Positions 1-64,000 are shown, counted from the stretch's first letter. The stretch is 64,000 nt of DNA from a bacterium (GCA_030693325.1 JAUYAV010000011.1:109603-173602), one strand, 5' to 3'. Translations and numbers: made by a program. The notes: generated by a model not told the origin, from the sequence alone.

Positions 1-920
1 AAGATAGCGCTTTTTATTTTCTCCTTGTTGTCCGGGTCAACTAAAATCCCCAATTTACCATTAAGAAGGGCGTCGCGCGAGCCGTCTTTGTTACCCGCGA
101 TAACAGGCGTACCGCAAGCCATGGCCTCTAAAAACACTATACCAAAACCCTCCTTTTTAGAAAGCATAGCAAAAACATCGGCTAAGTTGTAATAGTCAGC
201 CAACTCATCATCCGGTACGTATCCCGTCAATACAACATCCTTCTCAACTCCTACTTTTTTGATAAGTTTTTCAATTCTTTCTATATCGTCCCCTCCGCCG
301 ACTAAAAAGTATTTAATATTGCAATCTTCCTCTTTTATCTCCGGAAGTATTTCAATAATCTTATCATAACCTTTGCGCTGTTCAGTGGAATCCAACCTAG
401 CCACGGTTAAAATTATTTTACTATTGTTGCTCAAACCATATTTTCTAATTAAATCTTGGGGTCGTCTTGCAATAAAAAATTTATCTTCATCAAATGTGGG
501 TGATAAAAAGTATAATTTATTTTCAATATTCGGCAGGGTTGCTTTTAAAAATCCCGCCGTAAAATCAGATATAGTCACGACTACGTCCGCGCCGTTCAGC
601 CCCCTGATTGCAACCCGGTTTTTTAAATCCCAAACTTCTATGCCGTATGTAAAAACAATATATTTCAAACTAAAAAGATTGTTTAAAAGTATGCACAAGG
701 GGGCAAAATTAATGTGAGTGCAGAAAATAACATCCGGTTTTTTAAAAACAGCAGCGAAAATACTTTTCAAAACAAAAATTGGCTTACCTAAAAAATGGGA
801 CGGTCTTTCAACTAAAAAAACTTTGGCGTTATTGTTTTTTAAGGCCATTAGAAGGTCTTTATTATACCGCTGGATACCGCCGGTTTTGCTAAGGTCTGAA
901 GATAAAAATAGTATTTTCAT
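1..920 (-). CDS. Glycosyltransferase family 4 (GT1 group); start codon at 920, C-terminus runs off the window start
   Basis: Reverse-strand translation reads MKILFLSSDLSKTGGIQRYNKDL...EGFGIVFLEAMACGTPVIAGNKDGSRDALLNGKLGILVDP (EX7E-type GT4 C-terminal motif). It is not in the ORF track because it is cut by the window edge; the + strand ORFs 373..717 and 718..939 are its antisense. Confidence 0.7.
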   Translation of the reverse strand, partial: MKILFLSSDLSKTGGIQRYNKDLLMALKNNNAKVFLVERPSHFLGKPIFVLKSIFAAVFKKPDVIFCTHINFAPLCILLNNLFSLKYIVFTYGIEVWDLKNRVAIRGLNGADVVVTISDFTAGFLKATLPNIENKLYFLSPTFDEDKFFIARRPQDLIRKYGLSNNSKIILTVARLDSTEQRKGYDKIIEILPEIKEEDCNIKYFLVGGGDDIERIEKLIKKVGVEKDVVLTGYVPDDELADYYNLADVFAMLSKKEGFGIVFLEAMACGTPVIAGNKDGSRDALLNGKLGILVDPDNKEKIKSAI

Positions 921-52754: not shown

Positions 52755-52783
52755 CAAAAAATCGCCTATTGGGCGATTTTTTG
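52755..52783 (+). terminator. Rho-independent terminator after tRNA-Asn (near-duplicate at 57846..57872)
   Basis: caaacaaaaaatcgcctattgggcgattttttgg versus caaacaaaaatcgccaatacggcgattttttgg. Confidence 0.65.
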
Positions 52784-52956
52784 GTAGAATAAATTTATAT
52801 TAAATCAAATATAGTCGGAATTATTTTCATCGTACTTGGTATACTATTAGCCACAATCAACAAGGGATTGGTAGGCACATTTCTTGGATCAGGAATAACA
52901 ATTACTGTAATAAACATTCTTAAATATTACAAAACAAAGAAAAAAGGATAACTTTT

Positions 52957-53886
52957 ATGAAGGAGTATTTTTTTGATGCCGATGGTGTTAGGTTAAACTA
53001 TGTTAAAGGGGATAATAATGGCCCTGCCTTAGTATTAATTCCTGGACAGAGCACTACATGGCAAAGTTACGAACCCGTTTTTAAGGGTTTGAGTAAAAAT
53101 TTTCAAGTATATTCTTTAAGTATCAGGGGTCATGGTAAAAGTGATTGGACTACTGGCGATTATAATTTTGATAGCATAGGAAAGGATGTAACGCTTTTTT
53201 TGGAAAAAATTATTAAACGCCCCACAATCCTTGTTGGCAATTCTAGCGGAGGTTTGATTAGTTTATGGATAGGTGTTAATAAACCAGAATTAGTAACTGG
53301 TGTTATTTTGGAAGACGCTCCTTTATTTAGCGCTGATTGGCCGCGGATAAAAAAAGAATTTGTATATGAAGTATTAAGTAAAACTGCTAAGTATTTGGGC
53401 AAAGAAGGTGGTGCTGATTATGTGGGTTTTTTAAATAGCATAGAAAGGCCATTGCTCAACGGCAAAACCAAAACCTTGCCTAAGTTATTAAGCAAGGGTT
53501 TAGCTTGGTTAATATATAATAGAGAATATAGACCAGGAAAAGTTATTATTAATACTCTTCCCAGGATTTTAAAAATGTTGGTTCGTATTATTCCTACTTT
53601 TGATCCTGATTTTTCAAGAGCGTGGGTTGATGGCAGGATTTATAAGGGATTAGATCACGAGGATGCTTTGAAAAAAATTAAAGTTCCTTTGCTAATTATT
53701 CATGCTAATTGGTTTAGAACAGAGAAGGGCTTGGTTGGGGCTATGGATGACAATGACGCAGAAAAGGCTAAAAGATTAGCGCCTCATGCCAAATATATCC
53801 GGATAAAAACACAACACTCGATTCACTCCGGAAAACCGAAAGAGTTTATCAGAATTATTAACGAATTCAAGAAAGATATAAAATAA
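52957..53886 (+). CDS. Alpha/beta-fold hydrolase
   Basis: Nucleophile elbow GNSSGG, HG oxyanion motif (SIRGHGKSD). Confidence 0.7.
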   Translation: MKEYFFDADGVRLNYVKGDNNGPALVLIPGQSTTWQSYEPVFKGLSKNFQVYSLSIRGHGKSDWTTGDYNFDSIGKDVTLFLEKIIKRPTILVGNSSGGLISLWIGVNKPELVTGVILEDAPLFSADWPRIKKEFVYEVLSKTAKYLGKEGGADYVGFLNSIERPLLNGKTKTLPKLLSKGLAWLIYNREYRPGKVIINTLPRILKMLVRIIPTFDPDFSRAWVDGRIYKGLDHEDALKKIKVPLLIIHANWFRTEKGLVGAMDDNDAEKAKRLAPHAKYIRIKTQHSIHSGKPKEFIRIINEFKKDIK

Positions 53887-54590
53887 TGCCGAATAAATAT
53901 TTAATAGGAATAGATATTGGGGGGACAAAAACGAGAGGAGTTCTTTTGGATGGAAGAAAAATTATCAGGACTCTGGAAATTCCCACCACCAAAAACAAAG
54001 AAGGACTCAAAAGAGAACTTAAAAAAATTGTTAAAAAATTAAAACCAGAAAAAAGAAATTTTTCAATTGGAATTGGGGTAGCCGGGATAATTAAAAAAAC
54101 TACTCTTCTTTTTGCTCCTAATATTGGGATTAAAAATTTTAATTTCAAAAAAATTTTTTCAGGCATTCCCTTGAAGATTGATAACGATGCCCGTTCTTTT
54201 TTAAGAGGAGAAATTTTATTAGGAATAGCTAAAGAAGCAAAAAATGCCTTTGGTTTTACCATTGGTACGGGAATTGGTCGGGCTTATGCCCAAAAAGGAG
54301 TCGTAAAGAAAATAAAAAAATTTGAATATCCGGAAAAATGGGAAAAAGAATATCAAAAAATTCGAGACCAGAAGAACGACTTAAAACTTATCAAATTTTT
54401 AGGGGTTAAACTCTCAAATTTATTGAAGCAATATAGAGCTGAAACGATTATAATAGGTGGAGGTCTAATAGAACAGAAAGATTTTTTTAAAAAACTTACA
54501 AAAGAACTCCGAAAACAAGGGATAAAAAGCAAAATCAAACCTTCTAACCTTGGAAGAAATTCTGCCGCAATTGGCGCTACTTTAATTTAA
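53886..54590 (+). CDS. ROK family sugar kinase (glucokinase-like)
   Basis: IGIDIGGTKTRGVLLDG, second glycine-rich motif GIGVAG; overlaps the previous gene at the stop/start. Confidence 0.7.
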   Translation: MPNKYLIGIDIGGTKTRGVLLDGRKIIRTLEIPTTKNKEGLKRELKKIVKKLKPEKRNFSIGIGVAGIIKKTTLLFAPNIGIKNFNFKKIFSGIPLKIDNDARSFLRGEILLGIAKEAKNAFGFTIGTGIGRAYAQKGVVKKIKKFEYPEKWEKEYQKIRDQKNDLKLIKFLGVKLSNLLKQYRAETIIIGGGLIEQKDFFKKLTKELRKQGIKSKIKPSNLGRNSAAIGATLI

Positions 54591-55863
54591 TGTTTCCCAA
54601 AATATAAAGTTTTAAGTTGTCTAAAATATACCTGGGCATTAAAAAATGCCGTTTTACCGATTCTCTGGCTCTTCTTCCAAGTTTTTCTCTTAACTTTTCG
54701 TCTTTTAACAGACGGACAATCCATTTGGCCATTTCCTCGGGTGAAGTAACTAAAATTCCGTTTTTCTTATTTTCTATCTGAAGCCGAGAACCAGCCGTTA
54801 TTCCGGCAATTATTGGTTTTCCTTTCCACATTGCCTCGGTTATTGTTAAACCAAAACCTTCGCGAATGCTTCCCTGAACCATTATCGGACTTGCAGTACA
54901 AAAAGCGTTGATTAAAATATCATCTGAAATATTTTTTAATTGCTTTGGATTATAAAAAAAATGAATATTGAGGTCTCCTTTCTCATGTTTTCTTATCTGT
55001 TTAAAAGACGAAATCGCTTCGGGATCGTCCTGGGCTTCAAAAAATCCCACCTGAACCAATTGAAGATCGGGAATTTTATTTTTAGCTAAATAGTAGGCCT
55101 GAATTACTCCCAACTGTCCTTTCCAGGGATCAAACCGGGAAACTTGAACGATGATCGGTTTTGTAGGAGTAATACCATGATCCACAATAATTTCTCTTGC
55201 CACCTCTGGGCTCATTGATTTGTTTTTGTCTGAAAAAGGGTCAATGGCCGGATAAATAATTTTAAGTTTTGATTTTTTAATCCAGGGCAAAGCTAAGGCA
55301 TAATCTTTATTGCTTATAATAACCTGGTCGTAATTAATGATAAAAGGTCTTAAAAATTCAAGCACCGATGGATTTGGCAATGATAAATCAATATGGAGAC
55401 GCAATAAGGAAGAAAAATTTTTAGGGACTATCTTTATTAACGGAAGCGGCTGTGGATCGTGAATTATGACAATACCATTTTTAAATCGCTTCAGAAACTC
55501 AGCCAATTCTCTTCCCAGCTCGCGATTTACAGAAAGAAAAAATTCTTTTTCTTTCTCTGAAAGAAATCCAACCTTCCCTTGTAAAAGATTGTGAATTTTT
55601 TTGGTAATAACAAAAAATCGACGCTCTGCTTTAATAACAAGCCAGTGGCTTTCAATCCCCAAAGATTTTTCTAAAGGTATTTGGCTTCTTAATATTTCTG
55701 CCACTCCGCCTCCGGATGAAGTTGAGTTAATATGAATGATTGCTTTTTTTCTTATTTTCTTTGCGCGAGTCAAAACTTCATGACAGGTTTTAGGGTCCAG
55801 CTTTTGATATTCTTTAATGCTTTTTGAAGCCCAATCTAATTTAATTTCTTCAAGTTCAGCCAT
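54577..55863 (-). CDS. GT4 glycosyltransferase, trehalose-synthase (TreT)-like
   Basis: N-terminal HINSTSSGGGVAEIL (cf. the TreT VNST..GGGVAEIL signature) and C-terminal GT4 REGFGLTITEAMWKGKPIIAG. Confidence 0.55.
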   Translation of the reverse strand: MAELEEIKLDWASKSIKEYQKLDPKTCHEVLTRAKKIRKKAIIHINSTSSGGGVAEILRSQIPLEKSLGIESHWLVIKAERRFFVITKKIHNLLQGKVGFLSEKEKEFFLSVNRELGRELAEFLKRFKNGIVIIHDPQPLPLIKIVPKNFSSLLRLHIDLSLPNPSVLEFLRPFIINYDQVIISNKDYALALPWIKKSKLKIIYPAIDPFSDKNKSMSPEVAREIIVDHGITPTKPIIVQVSRFDPWKGQLGVIQAYYLAKNKIPDLQLVQVGFFEAQDDPEAISSFKQIRKHEKGDLNIHFFYNPKQLKNISDDILINAFCTASPIMVQGSIREGFGLTITEAMWKGKPIIAGITAGSRLQIENKKNGILVTSPEEMAKWIVRLLKDEKLREKLGRRARESVKRHFLMPRYILDNLKLYILGNIKLK

Positions 55864-56029
55864 AAAATTTTTTCTGCCAAAGATTTCTAACGAGGTTAAC
55901 CTATTTTATTTTATACTATTGCGCTTTCTAAAGAAAGCGCTTCGGAAGCTCAAAAACCCGAAAAAACAAAGTGACCTTAAAACAAAAACCGCCTTTTAAT
56001 CAAAGACAGTTTTTGTTATGATAATTTAA

Positions 56030-56884
56030 ATGACAGATTTTATTGATAAAATTGCAAAACTTCTAATTCCATGGCTTCTTTCCCAAGGGATAAAAATTAT
56101 AGGCATAATTATTATTGCCTATTTGGTCAGAAGATTTAGCAAGGTCTTTATTGAAAAAGCAATCAGGACAGCAGTGGTGGCTAATCATTATTTATCAAAA
56201 GAGGCCGAGAAAAAAAGAGAAGATACATTGATTAGAATTTTCTCCGGCGGGATTGGAATAGTAATTTTAATCATTGCTCTATTGATGGTTTTACAGGAAA
56301 TTGGAATTGCCACCGGACCGATTTTGGCGGCGGCAGGAATTGCCGGTTTAGCTTTCGGTTTTGGCGGACAGTATCTAATCCGCGATATTATTTCAGGGAT
56401 TTTTATCATTCTAGAAAATCAATATCGAATTGGCGACGTGGCTTGTTTTGACGGCACTTGCGGTCTAGTTGAGGATATCAGTATGAGAATGACTACTTTA
56501 AGAGATTTAGACGGCACCGTTCATCACGTTCCCCACGGTGAGATTAAAAAAGTTTCCAATCTCACAAAACATTTTGCCAGAGTCAATCTTAACGTCGGCG
56601 TTGCCTATAGTTCAGATTTAGAAAAAGTGATTGAGGTGGTAAATCAAGTCGGCCAGGAACTGGCCGTCGACCCCCAATGGAAGGATTTCGTCATCAAGCC
56701 GCCCCAGTTTTTGCGCGTTGACGATTTTGCCGAATCGGCGATTATAATCAAAATTCTTGGCGAGACACAGCCCATCAAGCAATGGGACGTGACTGGCGAA
56801 CTCCGCAAACGGCTCAAAATCGCTTTTGATAAAGAAGGAATTGAAATCCCGTTCCCCCAGCGGGTAATCCACCAACAGAAATAA
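56030..56884 (+). CDS. Small-conductance mechanosensitive channel (MscS family)
   Basis: Three TM helices, then GIAGLAFGFGGQYLIRDIISGIFIILENQYRIGDVACFDGTCGLVEDISMRMTTLRDLDGTVHHVPHGEI. Confidence 0.8.
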   Translation: MTDFIDKIAKLLIPWLLSQGIKIIGIIIIAYLVRRFSKVFIEKAIRTAVVANHYLSKEAEKKREDTLIRIFSGGIGIVILIIALLMVLQEIGIATGPILAAAGIAGLAFGFGGQYLIRDIISGIFIILENQYRIGDVACFDGTCGLVEDISMRMTTLRDLDGTVHHVPHGEIKKVSNLTKHFARVNLNVGVAYSSDLEKVIEVVNQVGQELAVDPQWKDFVIKPPQFLRVDDFAESAIIIKILGETQPIKQWDVTGELRKRLKIAFDKEGIEIPFPQRVIHQQK

Positions 56885-57028
56885 AGACAAATATTTAAGA
56901 ACGAAAACTTAACCAAAAAGCAACGATTGATTTTCGTATCTAATCGATTACCTTTGTGGGATTAGAACTTTTTCCACTCTTTTAGTATAATGAATATGGA
57001 TATTTATTATTAAATTAATTACCAAAAT

Positions 57029-57736
57029 ATGAAAAACAAAATTTTAGTAACTAGCGTCTTGGCACTTGCTTTCATTTTTGCATTTAATGCTTATGCCATA
57101 GGTCAAAATAGCACGGGCGGAGCTGGAGCTGGCAACCAAGTCCAGCAACAAACCCAAACCGCCAATCAAGGCGAAGACAGCCAAATCCAAGCGCAAAATA
57201 ATAAACAGGTTCAAAGCGGAAATACAACGGGAACAAATACAGGAACGCAAACACAGCAACAAAATCAGGGAGAAGCTAATCAGATAAAAAATGAAGAACA
57301 GAAGGAGCAAATCAATGCCGAACAGCATCGCAGTACTGTAGCAAATTTTGTTCAGGGCGTTTTGAAAACAGCCAGCAGCACCGAAGGCGGGATAGGACAA
57401 CAGATTAGGGTTATCGCTCAGCAGCAAAATCAGTCGGAAAACACAACAATTCAGGCAATGGAAAAAATTCAGACAAGAAGCAAAATAAAAACATTCTTTT
57501 TAGGTTCTGATTATAAAAACTTGGGATCATTGAGAAGCGAAACGGTTCAAACCAAAAACAGATTGGAGCAATTAAACAGATTAATGGAGAATATTCAGAA
57601 TGAAGGAGATAAAACAGAACTTCAAAATCAAATTCAGACATTGGAGCAGGAACAAACAAAGATTGAAAGTTTTATAAAAGCGCAGGAAGGCAAATTTAGT
57701 TTATTTGGCTGGGTATTCAGATTGTTTGCCGAATAA
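57029..57736 (+). CDS. Hypothetical secreted protein, Gln/Asn/Thr-rich low complexity plus coiled coil
   Basis: Signal peptide MKNKILVTSVLALAFIFAFNAYA. Confidence 0.45.
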   Translation: MKNKILVTSVLALAFIFAFNAYAIGQNSTGGAGAGNQVQQQTQTANQGEDSQIQAQNNKQVQSGNTTGTNTGTQTQQQNQGEANQIKNEEQKEQINAEQHRSTVANFVQGVLKTASSTEGGIGQQIRVIAQQQNQSENTTIQAMEKIQTRSKIKTFFLGSDYKNLGSLRSETVQTKNRLEQLNRLMENIQNEGDKTELQNQIQTLEQEQTKIESFIKAQEGKFSLFGWVFRLFAE

Positions 57737-57773
57737 TTTCTTAAACTCGGTATTTTTATGCCCGTGGCCTCAA

Positions 57774-57845
57774 AGCAGGTATGTAAATATACTCATTTCC
57801 CCTCTCAAAGATAGTTCTAACGTTATCCACAACGCGGAGCCAAAC
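57774..57845. repeat. Intergenic repeat R1 (caggtatgtaaatatactcattt ... agttctaacgttatccacaacgcggagcc); paralogue at 59067..59133
   Basis: About 70% identity over about 65 nt between the two copies. Each begins with a near-palindrome gtatRtaaatatac and sits directly 3' of a + strand gene. Confidence 0.5.
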
Positions 57846-57872
57846 AAAAATCGCCAATACGGCGATTTTTTG
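57846..57872 (+). terminator. Rho-independent terminator (near-duplicate of the one after tRNA-Asn)
   Basis: aaatcgccaatacggcgattttttgg. Confidence 0.6.
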
Positions 57873-57946
57873 GTACACTAAAGCGATAAAAGGTCAATAA
57901 AAATGCTATAATGATTACTACCAATCTTGATTAAAAAATATGAAAT

Positions 57947-58135
57947 ATGAAAATTTTTAGAGCAAGGACATTTCGGTGGTGGGAAATAGGTTTAATAAAA
58001 GTCTGCCTTATTCCATTGGGTATTATATTGGGCATATATTTCCATACTTACCTTGCGGGTTTTTTGTGGCTTTGGTGGATGTTATTTATAACAACGGCAA
58101 TCTATTTTATTACTCGATTTGTGTACGAAAAATAA
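57947..58135 (+). CDS. Hypothetical small membrane protein (62 aa, 2 TM)
   Basis: Hydrophobic, Trp-rich. Confidence 0.4.
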   Translation: MKIFRARTFRWWEIGLIKVCLIPLGIILGIYFHTYLAGFLWLWWMLFITTAIYFITRFVYEK

Positions 58136-58186
58136 AAGTAGACTTTCTGGTCTTAATTTAGTTATAGCCATAACAATATATTATTT

Positions 58187-58429
58187 ATGAACCCCTTTGA
58201 CAAAATAGAAGAAACGAAAAAAGAGGCAAAAGAAAAAATGCTAACCTTAATTTTAGCCGGCTTTGGGTTAGTAGCGGCTTTGGCATGGAATGATGCTATT
58301 CAAACCTTGTTCAGGCTTCTTTTCCTAGAAAGCGATGGGGTAATTGGAAAATTTATTTACGCGGTAATTGTGACAATTTTTATAGTTTTTATTTCTTCGC
58401 ATTTGAAAAAAATCAGTGAAAAAATCTAG
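58187..58429 (+). CDS. Hypothetical small membrane protein (80 aa, 2 TM)
   Basis: Charged N-terminal helix then two TM segments. Confidence 0.45.
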   Translation: MNPFDKIEETKKEAKEKMLTLILAGFGLVAALAWNDAIQTLFRLLFLESDGVIGKFIYAVIVTIFIVFISSHLKKISEKI

Positions 58430-58461
58430 TAATAAAATTAAAGTTCTGTTATAATGTAATT

Positions 58462-59037
58462 ATGAAGTGTCCAAAGTGCAAAAAAGAATTATCGGAAAAA
58501 ATTAAAATCGGCGATGTCAAAATTGACCGTTGTTCCGGGTGCGGCGGACTTTGGTTTGAAAAAGACGAATTGCGTCTGGCTAAAGATAAAAAAGCTCCGG
58601 AAGCCAAATGGGTGGATGCCGAGATTAAAGACAAAAGCATTAATTGGTTCCAATTTGAATTCTGGAAAGATAAAATAAAATTTAAAATTAAGAAAGGGTT
58701 AAAATACTGCCCGACTGACGATATACCTCTTTATCAGCTTAATTATGATGATACGCCGATTGAAATTGATGTTTGCGGCATCTGTTTCGGTATCTGGCTT
58801 GATAAGGGCGAGTTTAAAAAAATTATTGATTATGTAAAAAATAAAGCCGACTACGAAGTGCTTTATAATTACGCGAAAAATCTAGCCGAGGAAACAAAAG
58901 AAATTTTTATAGGGCCGGAAAGCGTCAAATCCGAAGTAGTGGACTTATTGATGCTTATCAAGCTCCTGAAGTATAAATTAATGGTACAGCACCCGGAATT
59001 GGTTAAATTAATTTCCATTATTCCGTTACCAAAGTAG
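58462..59037 (+). CDS. Tandem zinc-ribbon protein (two CxxC...CxxCxGxWxDxxEL units)
   Basis: CPKCKKEL...CSGCGGLWFEKDEL and CPTDDIPL...CGICFGIWLDKGEF. Confidence 0.6.
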   Translation: MKCPKCKKELSEKIKIGDVKIDRCSGCGGLWFEKDELRLAKDKKAPEAKWVDAEIKDKSINWFQFEFWKDKIKFKIKKGLKYCPTDDIPLYQLNYDDTPIEIDVCGICFGIWLDKGEFKKIIDYVKNKADYEVLYNYAKNLAEETKEIFIGPESVKSEVVDLLMLIKLLKYKLMVQHPELVKLISIIPLPK

Positions 59038-59066
59038 AATAAAAAAGTTAGGCCGTTAACGCCAAG

Positions 59067-59133
59067 TCAGGTATATAAATATACTCATTTTTTCGCTGGA
59101 TAATGATTCTAATGTCGTTCACAATGCGAAGTC
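59067..59133. repeat. Intergenic repeat R2 (paralogue of R1)
   Basis: caggtatataaatatactcatttt...gattctaatgtcgttcacaatgcgaagtc. Confidence 0.5.
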
Positions 59134-59328: not shown

Positions 59329-59344
59329 TATTAGGATTGTAATA

Positions 59345-59385
59345 AAAGCAAAGACGCCCACCGTGGGCGTCTTTGCTTTTATACT
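59345..59385. terminator. Bidirectional rho-independent terminator
   Basis: aaaagcaaagacgcccaccgtgggcgtctttgctttt. Confidence 0.7.
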
Positions 59386-59679: not shown

Positions 59680-60006
59680 ATACGACCTTTATGCAATTAT
59701 ACATAATTTACGGGTAAATAGTAAGCCCCCAGAATCAAGCGGGGTTTTGTTTACTCCGAACGCTGAACGAAATCCGCCCTGCCCGTCCGTAGCCCTGCCT
59801 GCTGGCGAGGCAGGTTGTATATAGTATTCGCCAAGATTTTTTGGGTTCAATCGCCACCTTTTGCGAAAGCAAAACGCGGTTCGAGCCAATGATTGCCGTT
59901 TCGCTCAAAATCCTTTTTTGAGGAAAAATTATAGTTTTCAAAAAAATTACCGGGAAATATCCCTAAAATAAAGCCTTTTAGAGCTTTATTACAATTTGCT
60001 TGTTTA

Positions 60007-61155
60007 GTGGCAATTTGCTACAATATTTACATGAAGATATTTAAACGTGATCTTGAAGAGAAAATTACTCCCGTATTATTCAAGGGAAAGTTAGTGGTCA
60101 TCTTAGGCCCGAGGCAGTCGGGGAAGACCACGCTGGCTAAAAAAATTATTAACGAATATGGCGAGGATGGAGAGTATTACGATTGTCAGATAGCAGATGT
60201 GCGAGCGCATTTTGTATTGGGCGAACCGGATAAGCTTTTACCATTAACTAAAATGAAGAAAATCGTAGTATTTGATGAAGCCCAGACAATCCAAAATATT
60301 GGGAGTATTCTTAAGGCATATCATGATACATATCCTGAAATACAAATAATCGCTACCGGCTCTTCATCGTTTGATCTTGCAAATAAAATCAAAGAGCCGA
60401 TGACTGGCCGAGCCTACGAATTTACTCTTTTGCCGCTTTCTTTGAATGAAATAACTTCTGCATATCCAGATTTTTGCGAGGCGGATCTTTTCAATATTAT
60501 GCAGTTTGGGTCATACCCCGCCACTATCGCGGCTGAAACGATTGAAGATAAATTGTTTTCAATACGAAATATTGCCACCAATTATCTGTATAAAGATATT
60601 TTCGTTTTTGAGGTCATTCGTAACCCAAAGATTTTTGAAGATTTGCTCAAAATGCTGGCATTGCAAATTGGTTCCACGGTATCGATCAATGAGCTATCTC
60701 AAGGCCTCGGTGTCACGCGGGCAACAGTAAATCGCTATTTGCGGCTTCTTGAACAATCTTTCATCATCAAAAGAATTTATTCCTTTTCCAATAATCCGCG
60801 CAATGAGATTAAGAAAGGTTTTAAAATATTTTTTCTAGATATAGGGGTTCGTAATGCGCTAGTGGATATTGTTTCGTCTATGCCAGAACGCAGTGACAAG
60901 GGAGTAATTTTTGAAAACTTTTTTGTCAGCGAGCGAATGAAAAAAGGTTCTTTGGAAATTTTCCCTCCGGAAATTATGTTTTGGCGGACACGGACGGGCC
61001 AAGAGATTGATGTGATAGAAAAAAACGGACCAAATATTTCCGCCTTTGAGTGTAAGTGGAAAGACGTTGTCTCGGCTCCGAAGCAGTTTTTGAAAGCGTA
61101 CCCGAATGTCACATTTGTACCAGTTAATATCAATAATATCCTTTCGCATGTTTAA
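60007..61155 (+). CDS. AAA+ superfamily ATPase (COG1373/DUF4143-type)
   Basis: Walker A VILGPRQSGKTTLAKK, Walker B IVVFDEAQ, plus the C-terminal DUF4143-like region. Flanked by 20-nt GC-rich direct repeats (59775..59794 and 61195..61213). Confidence 0.7.
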   Translation: MAICYNIYMKIFKRDLEEKITPVLFKGKLVVILGPRQSGKTTLAKKIINEYGEDGEYYDCQIADVRAHFVLGEPDKLLPLTKMKKIVVFDEAQTIQNIGSILKAYHDTYPEIQIIATGSSSFDLANKIKEPMTGRAYEFTLLPLSLNEITSAYPDFCEADLFNIMQFGSYPATIAAETIEDKLFSIRNIATNYLYKDIFVFEVIRNPKIFEDLLKMLALQIGSTVSINELSQGLGVTRATVNRYLRLLEQSFIIKRIYSFSNNPRNEIKKGFKIFFLDIGVRNALVDIVSSMPERSDKGVIFENFFVSERMKKGSLEIFPPEIMFWRTRTGQEIDVIEKNGPNISAFECKWKDVVSAPKQFLKAYPNVTFVPVNINNILSHV

Positions 61156-61295
61156 CCAAGCTATGGACACATTAGAAAAACTAGCCAAAGCCCTCGCCTG
61201 CCCGTCCGTAGCCTTATGGCGAAGGCGGGGCGTGCTTGCCCTTCCGAAGCCGAAAGGCGAAGGAGTACCGGTAGCTGAATTATTTAAATAAAAAT

Positions 61296-62300
61296 ATGGG
61301 AACAAAAAAGTCATTATATAAAGCAAATAAGGTTAAGGACGATGAGTTTTATACTCTTTTTGAGGATATTGCCAATGAAGTTTCTCTTTATAAAGAACAA
61401 CTAAAAGGGAAAAGAATTTTATGTCCTTGCGATTGGGATGAAAGTTATAACGAAGAACTTGTCTATAAAGAAGAAGGGTTTGTCGCCTCGTCTAATTTAT
61501 TAGATGCTGGAGGCACAATAAAAAAAATAGATATAAAGGCCTCTAAAGAAAAAGTAGAAAAAGATTTAGCTTTGATTAAATGCAATTTTGTAAAATTTTT
61601 AGTTGCCCATGCCGATGCTTATGGCATAACTTCAATTTCAGTGAGTGGGTATAATCCTGCTACAGGTAAAGGTGTGAAATTTCAAGATGTTAATTATTCA
61701 AAATACGATATTGTCATAACAAACCCGCCATTTAGCAAATTTAGAGAATTTATTGATACGATGTTCAAAAATGAAATGAAGTTTTTAGTTATCGGACCAC
61801 TCACGGCTATAACTTATAGGGACATTTTTACTCACATAGAAAGCAATGAAATGTGGCTTGGTTACGCGAAGCAATTGTCCGGATTTAGATTGTTAGATGG
61901 CACGCTTGTTCTTTCTAAAAACCCCGAAGGTTCAGTTTCCAGAGCCTGTAAGTGGTATACAAATTTTGATGTTGCTTATAGGCATGATAAAATGATTTTA
62001 ACTGAGAGCTATAGCCCTGAAAAATATCCAAAATATTATAATTACAACGGCATAGACGTCGAAAAAACACTTAAAATACCATTCGATTATGTCGGCGTGA
62101 TGGGAGTGCCAATAACATTTTTACAGAAATTTAATCCCAATCAATTTAAAATAATTGGTAAGGGTGTGCAGGTAAAAAAAACGATAAGATTTAAGGGCGA
62201 TAAAGCAACCCTTTGGATTGAAAAAGATGGTAAGCCATTTAAGGCTCCCTTTGAAAGAATATTAATAAAAAATAAAAAAGTAATTAAGAACGACAAATAA
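61296..62300 (+). CDS. Adenine-specific DNA methyltransferase-like protein (NPPF motif IV)
   Basis: DIVITNPPFSKF catalytic motif of N6-adenine (gamma-type) MTases; N-terminal DEFYT. Confidence 0.6.
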   Translation: MGTKKSLYKANKVKDDEFYTLFEDIANEVSLYKEQLKGKRILCPCDWDESYNEELVYKEEGFVASSNLLDAGGTIKKIDIKASKEKVEKDLALIKCNFVKFLVAHADAYGITSISVSGYNPATGKGVKFQDVNYSKYDIVITNPPFSKFREFIDTMFKNEMKFLVIGPLTAITYRDIFTHIESNEMWLGYAKQLSGFRLLDGTLVLSKNPEGSVSRACKWYTNFDVAYRHDKMILTESYSPEKYPKYYNYNGIDVEKTLKIPFDYVGVMGVPITFLQKFNPNQFKIIGKGVQVKKTIRFKGDKATLWIEKDGKPFKAPFERILIKNKKVIKNDK

Positions 62301-62301
62301 T

Positions 62302-63375
62302 ATGAATATCAAAAATTTATACGAACAAGTTAGAGATGGAAAAATTATCAGCGATATAGAACTTCAGAGAGAAATTGTTTATGACGCTGAAAAACAAATG
62401 CTGGTAATAGATAGCATTGTAAATGGAATTCCTTTGCCAGCATTTTATTTTTGGAAAAATAAAGATGGCATTTTGGAAGTTTTAGATGGTAAGCAAAGAA
62501 TAGAATCTATTAAGAAATTTGTTGAGAATGATATTCAATATCAAGATAAATTGTGGAAACAAACCGACAAGAAAATTCAAAATATAATAAATGATACCGA
62601 GCTTTCAATTATTATTTGTGAGGGGAAAGAGCAACTAAAAAGAGAAATATTTAGAAGAATTAATACTTTAGGCGTGCCACTTTCTCCTTATGAAGTATTA
62701 AATGGTCTTTTCCATGGCGAGTATTTAAGGGGTTTAACCGCTTATGTTGGGCAAGACAGAGATGCGTTAAGGGTTTTTGGTTCTAATAGCCGCGGTAAAA
62801 ATCAGTATAGAACTTTGCAATTATTAATGACATTGAAGGATTTAGCAAAAGACGCTCATACTATAAATGATTATGTGAATAAATGTCAGAATAATACTTT
62901 CGCTGATAACCAAATAGAAATTGGCAAATATATCAAATTTGTTAGTGAAATATTTGAAGAATATGGTCAGTTAGATGTTTATTTTAATTTGGCGAGAAAA
63001 TATTTTAAAGATGCAGTTATTTGGAAACAGAATAAGGATGAAATTAACTCTCGTGTTAAAAGATATTTGAAGAGCGATGATGCTAAACTTACAGATAAAT
63101 CAAAAGAAATAGAAGATATTATTCAAGCTATTGTAAATAATATTAGCGTTGATGATAAACGATTATTTTCAAGCGATGATAAAAAAGAATTTTTAAGAAA
63201 AAAGAAACCGAACAAAGAAAATAAATATCAATGCGCCGATTGCAAAAAGTATTTTTACGTAGAAGAATTGACAATGGATCATAAAGACCCGTGGAGTAAG
63301 GGTGGTAGAACCGAACTTTCAAACGCAGAATTACGGTGTCGCCCATGTAATATTAAAAAGGGAAATAGAAGTTAG
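62302..63375 (+). CDS. DUF262 (ParB/GmrSD N-terminal-like) - HNH fusion nuclease
   Basis: N-terminus LQREIVY...IDSIVNGIPLPAFYFW...LDGKQRIESI (DUF262 DGQQR-type motif). C-terminus CADCKKYF...MDHKDPWSKGG...CRPCNIKKGN (HNH). Starts 2 nt after the MTase stop. Confidence 0.7.
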   Translation: MNIKNLYEQVRDGKIISDIELQREIVYDAEKQMLVIDSIVNGIPLPAFYFWKNKDGILEVLDGKQRIESIKKFVENDIQYQDKLWKQTDKKIQNIINDTELSIIICEGKEQLKREIFRRINTLGVPLSPYEVLNGLFHGEYLRGLTAYVGQDRDALRVFGSNSRGKNQYRTLQLLMTLKDLAKDAHTINDYVNKCQNNTFADNQIEIGKYIKFVSEIFEEYGQLDVYFNLARKYFKDAVIWKQNKDEINSRVKRYLKSDDAKLTDKSKEIEDIIQAIVNNISVDDKRLFSSDDKKEFLRKKKPNKENKYQCADCKKYFYVEELTMDHKDPWSKGGRTELSNAELRCRPCNIKKGNRS

Positions 63376-63436
63376 TATGTAAATTGTTTTGAGTAATGGA
63401 AACTCTAAAAAAAAATTATGATAATAAGCGAATAAT

Positions 63437-64000
63437 ATGGGTAAGGTTTATTTAAAAAATAATTGGGCAGAAACTTTTGTTTTCGGTGATAAAACACCCG
63501 GAGTTTATGTCGGCCGTGAGGATGAACTACAAAACCTAAAATTTACTTTAGTAAATAATAATTCAGCCTCTATTTTAATTTCTTCCGTGCGGGGAGTTGG
63601 GAAAACATCTTTTGTCCATAAGGCATTGAGTGAGGCTACCAAAGATGTTTATCCGATTTTTGTAAATGCCGGCCATGTTATGAGTTGTTGTGGGAAAGAA
63701 GGCTTGCCCAAGAGAGAACTTTTGAACTCTTTGATTCGTTCTGCGTATTTTGAATTTAAGGACAAAGATTCTGAAATTAAGGATTTATATTATAAAACCT
63801 TAGGAAAATTTAAAGAATATAAATTCATCCAAGAATCTGAAGAAAAAGTTTCTGAAAAAGAAGTTGGCTTAACAAAGGAGTTTAATATAAGGCACATTTT
63901 TGCTATTTCAGGCTCCGTTTTAGCTACTGTAGGAATAATGAATGAAATTTGGTGGGTTAAAGTTATTGGTATTTTGGGCACAATAAGTATACCGGTATCT
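63437..64000 (+). CDS. P-loop NTPase (AAA_16/STAND-like N-terminus); the gene runs off the window end
   Basis: ILISSVRGVGKTSFVHKAL Walker A preceded by VYVGREDEL; not in the ORF track because no stop occurs within the window. Confidence 0.5.
   Translation, partial: MGKVYLKNNWAETFVFGDKTPGVYVGREDELQNLKFTLVNNNSASILISSVRGVGKTSFVHKALSEATKDVYPIFVNAGHVMSCCGKEGLPKRELLNSLIRSAYFEFKDKDSEIKDLYYKTLGKFKEYKFIQESEEKVSEKEVGLTKEFNIRHIFAISGSVLATVGIMNEIWWVKVIGILGTISIPVS

Follow-up and report, generated by a model that had tools for sequence, protein, structure and literature searches.

Type II restriction-modification (R-M) systems with HNH nucleases, such as KpnI, Hpy99I, PacI, and DraIII, are formed by a separate methyltransferase (MTase) and nuclease, and the classical Type IIP enzymes do not have an N-terminal ParB/Srx-type NTP-binding DUF262 module with its DGQQR motif. 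In open-access reviews this module is taken as a hallmark of modification-dependent enzymes. It is present in the GmrSD-family Type IV enzymes (GmrSD, Eco94GmrSD, and BrxU), where DUF262, with the motifs QR and DGQQR, is followed by a His-Me finger nuclease, the C-terminal DUF1524; these enzymes occur alone, and their target is modified DNA. SspE and DndI also join a DUF262 NTPase to a nuclease that nicks or cleaves, and they work with a host DNA-modification module, the partner mark being PT from SspABCD or DndBCDE. Menshen and PD-T4-2, according to a review, both lack the DUF1524 domain.

We analysed a stretch of 64,000 nucleotides (the window) from a Paceibacteria-class (CPR; Patescibacteria) chromosome; at the end of the window, four genes, named A to D, sit in a strain-specific island. 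The block is a mosaic and a fairly ordinary defence island, because the flanking ATPase genes are unrelated to its core, a mobile two-gene R-M cassette formed by genes B and C.

Organization of the Island

The four predicted open reading frames were all present at their expected positions, on the + strand (Table 1), and the domains originally assigned to the first three (DUF4143 ATPase, m6A MTase, and DUF262-HNH nuclease) were borne out by Pfam profile matches. The description of the block as low in GC was correct for genes B and C (31.3% together versus 39.4% in the remaining window), partly so for gene D, and wrong for gene A (about 38-41%).

Table 1: Features of the island and of the gene C protein.
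Feature	Position (nt)	Residues	Strand	Basis
Left island edge (GC-rich repeat copy 1, then own hairpin)	59764..59814		+	
Gene A, AAA_14 + DUF4143 (with wHTH) ATPase	60031..61155		+	Pfam, PADLOC
Cassette leader element	61161..61291		+	Alignment, blastn, ORF listings
12-bp palindrome	61280..61291		.	Read off sequence
Gene B, EcoRI-family N6-adenine DNA methyltransferase	61296..62300	334 aa	+	Pfam, PADLOC
Gene C, DUF262-helical-HNH nuclease	62302..63375	357 aa	+	Pfam, PADLOC, AF2, fold matches
ParB/Srx-like DUF262 NTP-binding module, gene C	62302-62712	~1-137		
Helical middle domain, gene C		~140-300		
Cys4-zinc HNH, gene C	63232-63369	311-356		
Gene D, P-loop NTPase, N-terminal part	63437..64000	188 aa	+	Sub-cut-off Pfam matches, Walker A

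Homology to contig L230 of the closest relative ends at position 59763, and the island block is absent at the corresponding position in that relative. The first copy of a GC-rich repeat was located 11 nt inside this synteny break, and therefore the entire stretch from gene A to gene D is strain-specific island DNA. The repeats had been proposed as 20-nt direct repeats that bracket gene A as scars of a cassette insertion. They are real, with a shorter exact core of 17 bases (CCTGCCCGTCCGTAGCC) at 59778-59794 and 61197-61213 and an 82% copy at 61235; four matches with up to 2 mismatches were found, a number reached by none of 100 shuffles. The idea of cassette-specific scars did not hold, however: the 17-mer is the left arm of a family of GC-rich hairpins that is widespread in metagenomes. 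Copy 1 is followed by a terminator-like hairpin (CCTGCC...GGCAGG, 59794-59814), and terminator-like hairpins also lie between gene A and the MTase.

The conserved leader that precedes the MTase contains the putative C-terminal remnant of an XRE-type HTH reading frame (..DTLEKLAKAL / VPVAELFK*), broken in this window by two GC-rich hairpins (61197-61262) that include repeat copy 2. By alignment with related loci, the leader occurs uninterrupted in L013 and L007, and with hairpins in L010 and L007. The HTH remnant is also found in L010 and L013, where the MTase and nuclease genes are both intact, so it is ancestral to this cassette lineage and not a fresh lesion. Apart from this HTH-like remnant, no controller protein was found in the cassette. 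The leader ends in a perfect 12-bp palindrome, TTATTTAAATAA, 4 nt ahead of the MTase ATG, in a segment that is kept in L010, L007, L013, and L015; it may serve the operon as promoter or operator.

The Methyltransferase and the Nuclease

The protein of gene B matched EcoRI_methylase (PF13651, 1.5e-66) in Pfam and MTase_II (9.6e-64) in PADLOC. It shares this domain and the NPPF motif (residues 143-146) with the EcoRI-family gamma-class m6A methyltransferases, and it also carries the motifs DEFYT (16-20) and CPCD (43-46). Residues D16, E17, C45, D46, N143, P145, and F146 were invariant in 9 diverse homologues. As in Type II R-M systems, the MTase is a separate protein whose catalytic (D/N)PP(Y/F) and cofactor-binding motifs are intact. 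The junction with gene C reads TAA-T-ATG, the ATG of the nuclease following the MTase stop after a 1-nt spacer.

The protein of gene C begins with GmrSD_N/DUF262 (residues 4-137, 3.8e-16) and ends with an HNH domain (3.6e-11) of the PF01844/PF14279 type with CxxC...CxxC. The Pfam search for DUF1524 in this protein gave no match at E ≤ 0.1. The conservation of the family was followed in 68 nuclease sequences with identity down to 22%. Residues Q22, R23, D62, G63, Q65, R66, E131, R287, C311, H327, and N341 were invariant, and D326, C314, C346, and N350 were at least 90% conserved; the DGQQR motif of the family reads DGKQR in gene C (residues 62-66), and the DH-N-N pattern of the HNH, with its Cys4, is kept across the family. 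Neither of the two faults named in the original prediction as grounds for giving it up, a wrongly called DUF262 or an HNH that lacks catalytic or metal residues, occurs, because both the HNH and the DUF262 motifs are intact. In gene C, as expected of a Type II system, the endonuclease is encoded apart from and next to the MTase, and its catalytic site is intact.

In PADLOC, the Type II model REase_II (PDLC03418) fitted gene C end to end (1.9e-29, model positions 37-372 of 372). NsnA of Menshen and protein A of PD-T4-2 also matched (NsnA at residues 1-268, 2.7e-30; PD-T4-2_A at residues 10-222, 4.4e-12), but the likeness is limited to the N-terminal two-thirds and stops short of the HNH that gene C encodes in the same protein. 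The Menshen partners NsnB and NsnC had no PADLOC match in genes A, B, and D, so the locus lacks the composition of that system. The AF2 model of gene C (pLDDT 92.9) has an N-terminal domain of the ParB/Srx type and a C-terminal HNH domain. The top fold match of the model was BrxU, and further matches were SspE, DndI, ParB, Gme HNH, Hpy99I, DraIII, and PacI.

By comparison with the known systems, gene C shares the Cys4-zinc HNH, the PADLOC Type II models, and the predicted folds of Hpy99I, DraIII, and PacI with the Type II HNH nucleases, and differs from the classical Type IIP enzymes in having the N-terminal DUF262. With the GmrSD family it shares this domain and its putative DGQQR nucleotide pocket; in contrast to that family it ends in a PF01844 HNH with a Cys4 zinc site in place of the DUF1524 His-Me nuclease domain, it is shorter (BrxU has about 580 aa), and it does not stand alone, since a co-evolving EcoRI-family MTase lies ahead of it in about 98% of the loci examined. 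SspE and DndI have a nuclease domain of a different family, and their PT mark contrasts with an m6A mark predicted here to come from a single MTase.

The DUF262 module with its DGQQR motif leads us to predict that gene C depends on NTP. The fold relatives ParB and BrxU bind CTP or NTP, and by analogy with BrxU and SspE the nuclease is probably NTP-gated; the conserved QR and DGQQR motifs, together with the modelled ParB and BrxU matches, would speak against a need for Mg2+ as the only cofactor.

Conservation and Mobility of the Pair

An EcoRI-family MTase was found directly upstream of the nuclease homologue and on the same strand in 14/14 distinct close loci with upstream DNA. The order was the same in all 8 distant loci (plasmids and one phage), at 28-30% identity, and the MTase was upstream in 76 of the 78 IMG/VR loci. 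The two proteins diverge in step, with paired identities of 87/86, 58/64, 49/57, and 32/29%. The claim of a genuine, tightly coupled MTase-nuclease operon is therefore confirmed and can be extended to a pair conserved and co-evolving across loci; conserved linkage and parallel divergence point to a cognate pair, as in Type II systems. Here the MTase comes first and is tightly coupled to the nuclease.

The nuclease family is large: 637 clusters at 50% identity were obtained with gene C as phmmer query (E ≤ 1e-10), and at least 344 IMG/VR stretches encode relatives. The cassette had been called unconventional, which overstates the case: the two genes fit PADLOC models of Type II MTase and REase, and cassettes of this kind occur commonly in CPR bacteria, Bacillota, Actinomycetota, plasmids, and phages. 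Three loci are damaged. The MTase is frameshifted in L007 and hit by an IS256 insertion in L025, with an apparently intact nuclease in both, and in L019 only a fragment of the cassette remains. No palindrome was consistently avoided in the cassette-carrying genomes, so that the recognition site could not be deduced.

The cassette is horizontally mobile and widespread over phyla, plasmids, and phages. Its GC was lower than that of the flanks in 12/12 loci (0.34 versus 0.55 in L015). Cassettes compared by blastn share DNA homology exactly as far as the stop codon of the nuclease (63375); on the upstream side it reaches about 30 nt, and no more than about 110 nt, beyond the MTase. Cassette proteins are 83-89% identical between CPR classes and Clostridia, and the LepA of the host is 77% identical to that of Jorgensenbacteria and at most 57% identical to those of other named phyla.

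The Flanking Genes

The open reading frame of gene A begins at 60007 or 60031; the sole exact database record (374 aa) starts from the ATG at 60031. The protein has AAA_14 (residues 27-149, 8e-27) followed by DUF4143 (residues 196-351, 7.5e-36), which is the order of P-loop and DUF4143 expected of PDC-S01, and it matched this PADLOC family over its full length (7e-120). PDC-S01 (COG1373-type AAA_14 + DUF4143 ATPases) is a candidate single-gene defence family only. No homologue of gene A was found near any homologue of the R-M pair, and the gene is an independent neighbour outside the R-M cassette.

Gene D runs past the end of the window; in the 188-aa fragment, a Walker A motif, GVGKT, starts at residue 53 (residues 53-58). 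Its match to AAA_16 scored 23.2 bits where 32.6 is the cut-off, and that to ATPase_2 also fell below cut-off; all nSTAND matches had E ≥ 0.047, those of nSTAND1 and nSTAND6 lying at 0.05-0.08. Hydropathy pointed to hydrophobic TM-like segments at residues 153-188. Only four homologues were found, all fragmentary, and the database search gave no full-length one. A STAND NTPase would have a core of the NB-ARC/NACHT type and, after it, sensor repeats. With such sub-threshold matches, a TM-like stretch, and so few relatives, the earlier label of STAND-like found no confirmation. Gene D has a promoter-like site upstream (63397-63425) and encodes a rare P-loop NTPase; it is an independent neighbour outside the cassette.

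Proposed Mechanism and Alternatives

Taking into account the observed architecture, intact residues, near-universal order of MTase and nuclease, co-variation, low GC, and wide spread, we consider it likely that genes B and C make up a Type II-like R-M cassette that is self-contained and horizontally mobile, with genes A and D as independent neighbours; for this cassette we infer methylation-blocked cleavage, NTP gating, and a recognition site. The EcoRI-family enzyme would place N6-adenine methylation on a specific sequence of the host DNA, and the nuclease would be translated right after it from one shared, leaderless-looking mRNA. The nuclease would recognise the unmethylated form of the same sequence, probably via its helical middle domain, and cleave at the zinc-stabilised HNH (beta-beta-alpha-Me) site in its C-terminal domain. 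Judging from BrxU and SspE, the ParB/Srx-type DUF262 module would most likely serve as a switch, driven by NTP and working through a conformational change or dimerisation, that permits cleavage.

Several points count against a Type II-like reading. The nearest solved relatives of gene C are BrxU, SspE, and DndI, and these, like GmrSD, all depend on or sense modification. We found no experiment or paper on a DUF262-HNH enzyme blocked by the methylation of its partner, and no characterised enzyme was identified behind the PADLOC REase_II model. In addition, an apparently intact nuclease beside a damaged MTase, as in L007 and L025, would kill the cell if the enzyme were a classical REase and expressed; the same lesions, however, would also cut expression of the nuclease, by polarity or lost coupling.

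These two loci, and the strictly conserved NTP-binding motifs, would also fit an m6A analogue of Ssp/Dnd, in which the MTase marks the host and DUF262 senses the mark, leading to NTP hydrolysis and nicking of unmarked invader DNA by the HNH; in a variant, the nuclease would be a true Type IV enzyme against another, phage-type modification and the MTase would have another role. We regard this pair of options as unlikely. The end-to-end PADLOC match was to the Type II REase model and not to those of GmrSD or SspE, the domain at the C-terminus is a canonical HNH (PF01844) and not DUF1524, and the strict, translationally coupled MTase-first order with co-variation is the classic signature of protective methylation; a Type IV enzyme, moreover, would have no need of a dedicated, co-evolving MTase. 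That the DUF262-HNH protein is, by analogy, an NTP-gated sensor-effector reading the m6A of its partner, with the ParB/Srx switch sorting marked self from unmarked invader DNA ahead of any nick or cut, seems to us quite unlikely.

It is very improbable that the pair in this window is a remnant, in decay or silent, with an effectively orphan MTase. R-M cassettes in MAGs are often degraded, as in L019, L007, and L025, and the upstream HTH-like reading frame is reduced and interrupted by hairpin insertions. Both genes, however, are full length with all conserved catalytic and binding residues, the closest database relative of the nuclease shares 94% identity with it, and the HTH remnant is ancestral, as it occurs beside intact pairs.

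A joint action of genes A to D as one multi-component defence system, as first suggested by their co-directional adjacency and by the fit of gene A to a defence-candidate family, is hardly credible and already largely refuted by gene-neighbourhood data: homologues of A or D were found in none of about 100 loci with the pair (close, distant, and IMG/VR), the cassette homology has the sharp limits given above, terminator-like hairpins part gene A from the MTase, and gene D has its own promoter-like site and no PADLOC match to NsnB or NsnC.

Significance

The Type II-like reading tidies the annotation: there is no four-gene system, and standard tools would call the core a Type II R-M system. No published biochemistry on the pairing of an EcoRI-family MTase with a DUF262-HNH nuclease was found. 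The DUF262-HNH clade is large, abundant in phages, plasmids, and Patescibacteria, and almost always coupled to an EcoRI-family MTase. One characterised member would tell whether a conventional restriction enzyme, blocked by methylation, can be gated by an NTP switch of the ParB type. If the nuclease instead senses m6A, hundreds of phages, plasmids, and CPR genomes would carry an m6A counterpart of the Ssp/Dnd logic.

Gene content and domain assignments

The window is chromosomal DNA with genes for GroEL, DnaG, a short AlaRS, ComEC, SecD, and LepA. LepA shares 93% identity with its counterpart in a Candidatus Paceibacterota MAG and 77% with the Jorgensenbacteria protein, which places the host in the Paceibacteria class of the Patescibacteria (CPR). 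Its last 4 kb contain four co-directional ORFs, all on the + strand, whose domains had been correctly called in the original prediction, as was seen by profile search (AAA_14, DUF4143, PF13651, GmrSD_N/DUF262, and HNH). For gene A the ATG start was considered likelier, since it is the one used in the sole exact database record, and the product matched the PADLOC candidate family PDC-S01 (7e-120). Gene C starts 1 base past the TAA stop of gene B. Exact-product look-ups in databases gave no match for B and C, and for A and one upstream gene they gave only short contigs of a single run (SRR13727537). The description of the block as low in GC applies to B and C, which together have 31.3% against 39.4% in the remaining window, but not to A.

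Coordinates of the four ORFs and of the leader element that precedes the methyltransferase (MTase); L-numbers are other DNA loci used in the comparison
Feature	Position	Strand	Assignment
Gene A	60031 (ATG; less likely start 60007, GTG) to 61155	+	AAA_14 + DUF4143
Gene B	61296-62300	+	EcoRI-family adenine methyltransferase, PF13651 1.5e-66, NPPF at residues 143-146
Gene C	62302-63375	+	GmrSD_N/DUF262 at residues 4-137, C-terminal HNH at residues 311-356
Gene D	63437 to window end	+	Walker A motif; partial ORF
Leader element	window 61161-61291; L013 505-575; L007 8021-8110 and 8919-8995; L010 about 2886-2986

The MTase-nuclease pair as a mobile cassette

Close homologues of gene C are counted in hundreds, with 60-94% identity, and phmmer gave 637 matches among 50%-identity clusters at E <= 1e-10. 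Gene order was then examined in close genome and metagenome relatives, in distant homologues, and in IMG/VR viral contigs. The close relatives came from Saccharibacteria, Wildermuthbacteria, Yanofskybacteria, Staskawiczbacteria, Paceibacteria, Portnoybacteria, Clostridia, Actinomycetota, and Fibrobacter, and a homologue of B lay directly upstream of that of C in all 14 distinct loci having upstream DNA. The same arrangement was kept in 8/8 loci of distant homologues with 28-30% identity (Enterococcus, Moraxella, Microbacterium, Lactiplantibacillus, Apilactobacillus plasmids, an uncultured plasmid, and Flavobacterium phage laban6-1). At least 344 IMG/VR stretches code for relatives; of the best 80, 78 extended far enough upstream to be judged, and 76 of these had the MTase upstream and on the same strand. 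The identities of the paired proteins drop together (87/86, 58/64, 49/57, and about 32/29%). When cassettes were compared with each other, DNA homology set in ahead of B, by anything from a few to about 110 nt, and ended exactly at the stop codon of C. In 12/12 loci, hosts of 55-65% GC among them, the flanks exceeded the cassette in GC. Considering that the cassette proteins are 83-89% identical between CPR classes and Clostridia, far above what the housekeeping protein LepA would allow, the unit is horizontally mobile. The pair is a genuine cassette of restriction-modification (R-M) type, belonging to a family that is both large and mobile.

Other genes were seen between MTase and nuclease in several loci. 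In a Staskawiczbacteria MAG (L014, 9158-9898), a 246-aa ORF with an Abi_C domain (2.2e-10; abortive infection, HEPN-like) starts 2 nt past the MTase stop, so that a defence gene is embedded in the R-M operon. The two genes are 0.6-1.2 kb apart in 18 IMG/VR loci, including L179 (1022-4044), where two small ORFs (81 and 122 aa), neither with an assigned function, lie in the spacer. In the Enterococcus dispar plasmid pK205-4b-C (61-4699), the operon of an EcoRI-family MTase and its DUF262-HNH partner is split by optrA, an oxazolidinone/phenicol resistance gene.

Structure and conservation of the nuclease and the MTase

The AlphaFold2 model of gene C, built with an alignment of 68 diverse relatives, was confident (mean pLDDT 92.9), and the fold of its C-terminal part matched Gme HNH nickase, the HNH domains of Cas9, McrA, Hpy99I, DraIII, and PacI. 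In sequences down to 22% identity, residues Q22, R23, D62, G63, Q65, R66, E131, R287, C311, H327, and N341 were invariant, of which D62, G63, Q65, and R66 belong to the DGQQR motif, and D326, C314, C346, and N350 were at least 90% conserved. This conservation indicates selection on both the nucleotide pocket and the zinc-stabilised HNH site. The MTase retains DEFYT, CPCD, and NPPF. The N-terminal two-thirds of gene C resemble Menshen NsnA and protein A of PD-T4-2, but the partner genes of those systems are absent beside it. Gene C aligned end to end with the PADLOC Type II REase model PDLC03418 (1.9e-29) and gene B matched MTase_II (9.6e-64), so that standard defence annotators would name the pair Type II R-M. 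The idea of an R-M-like pair therefore holds, but calling it unconventional is an overstatement, since HMM libraries already label the family Type II. Among the solved structures searched, none was from a Type II REase of DUF262-HNH architecture; in the literature we found neither biochemical work on a pair of EcoRI-family MTase and DUF262-HNH nuclease nor the enzyme that seeded PDLC03418.

Leader and hairpin repeats

Upstream of the MTase is a conserved leader, about 60 nt long, whose translation resembles the C-terminal end of an XRE-type HTH protein, as if left over from such an ORF (GESxNPTVDTLEKIAKAL..VAELFK*). It is uninterrupted in L013 and L007 and hairpin-bearing in L010 and, again, L007; in some copies GC-rich hairpins enter at the same point, roughly in frame, and in the window two hairpins are inserted within it. 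The leader may be what is left of a controller-like gene, or it may be a site for recombination or regulation. At 61280-61291, TTATTTAAATAA forms a perfect 12-bp palindrome that ends 4 nt before the MTase ATG and has close variants in related cassettes; it may be the -10 region of a leaderless mRNA, or an operator. In L007 (7780-9000), two leader copies enclose a gene for a 279-aa Bro-N domain protein. Upstream are a sequence that resembles a tRNA 3' end (GGTTCGAATCC...) and partial repeats of this sequence, and the region looks like a tRNA-linked integration hotspot with stacked islands. The MTase of this locus is frameshifted and its nuclease intact.

The 20-nt direct repeat of the original prediction is real, although only 17 bases are exact, at 59778 and 61197; a third copy, at 61235, has diverged. 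The 17-mer makes up the left arm of a hairpin repeat that is rich in GC and has the approximate form CCCGTCCGTAGCC-N2-5-GGCGAAGGCGGG: the complementary arm was found at most 45 nt away in 54 of 95 distinct metagenome contexts holding the exact 17-mer, where 0.3% would be expected by chance. The flanks of these contexts are unrelated, and their contigs average 46% GC. Copy 2 forms a complete hairpin, with a second, variant one behind it; copy 1 has a different partner arm. An Rfam search of the repeats gave nothing above threshold and their folding z-scores were only about -1.7. Being the arm of a dispersed hairpin family, the 17-mer was rejected as a site-specific att or target-site duplication. 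The 1420-bp contig L020 was likewise rejected as an excised cassette: its length is close to the repeat spacing (1419) by coincidence, since it maps to 59887-61306 and is not repeat-bounded.

Island boundaries and neighbouring genes

Synteny with the contig of the closest relative (L230) stops at 59763, 11 nt ahead of copy 1, and L230 has a 62-aa ORF and a VIT1 gene instead, which places genes A to D in a strain-specific island. Its left edge coincides with a hairpin repeat; the repeats, taken before as brackets of an inserted gene A cassette, do not set gene A apart as a cassette by itself. No homologue of A or D was present in any pair-carrying locus checked in the close, distant, and IMG/VR sets, and a multi-component system of the four genes is accordingly not supported.

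The STAND-like call for gene D, of which 188 aa lie within the window, could not be confirmed, as the matches to AAA_16, ATPase_2, and nSTAND were all below threshold; its only four homologues are fragmentary. Residues 153-188 (63895-64000) contain two hydrophobic stretches (Kyte-Doolittle means of 1.8-2.1 over 15 residues), about 100 residues past the Walker A motif. KAP-type P-loop NTPases carry membrane helices inserted in the NTPase domain, and the stretches may reflect a similar insertion in gene D.

A further strain-specific segment, the second, is seen between lepA and the SWIB gene (52760-59127), where the window exceeds L230 by about 6.4 kb. It codes for an alpha/beta hydrolase, a ROK kinase, a TreT-like glycosyltransferase, MscS, a secreted Q/N-rich protein, DUF5654, and a zinc-ribbon protein. 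Where the zinc-ribbon and SWIB genes converge, the sequence between them contains a perfect inverted repeat of 20 nt (1-nt loop; 59342-59382), which is probably a bidirectional terminator and underlies a sub-threshold Rfam match to sraL (25 bits, cut-off 39).

Recognition site and proposed mechanism

TCGA and GATC are strongly depleted in the window (1-64000), with observed/expected ratios of 0.36 and 0.37 (z about -8), rarer than even CTAG (0.47), a hint that the host is or was under restriction pressure at these sites. The avoidance was not shared by the 13 other cassette-bearing loci, and no 4- or 6-mer palindrome was consistently depleted among such loci, so palindrome avoidance was rejected as a route to the recognition site.

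Most likely, B and C form a classical protective-methylation system with an unusual nuclease. Gene B would methylate adenine within a specific sequence, and gene C would recognise the same sequence if unmethylated, probably through its helical middle domain. The close and the distant group of homologues have different versions of this domain, and likewise of the gene B region between CPCD and NPPF. The ParB/Srx module of gene C would act as an NTP-dependent switch, as has been described for the modules of this type in BrxU and SspE, and the HNH domain would finally cut the DNA. The M-first order with a 1-nt spacer fits the usual need for methylation ahead of restriction.

Since every DUF262 nuclease characterised so far either depends on modification or senses it, we kept as a candidate, though an improbable one, a scheme like that of Ssp/Dnd, with the nuclease sensing the mark made by its partner MTase. 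Damaged MTases beside intact-looking nucleases, by frameshift in L007 and by IS256 insertion in L025, are awkward for an expressed classical REase, but the same lesions would also lower nuclease expression, via lost coupling or polarity.
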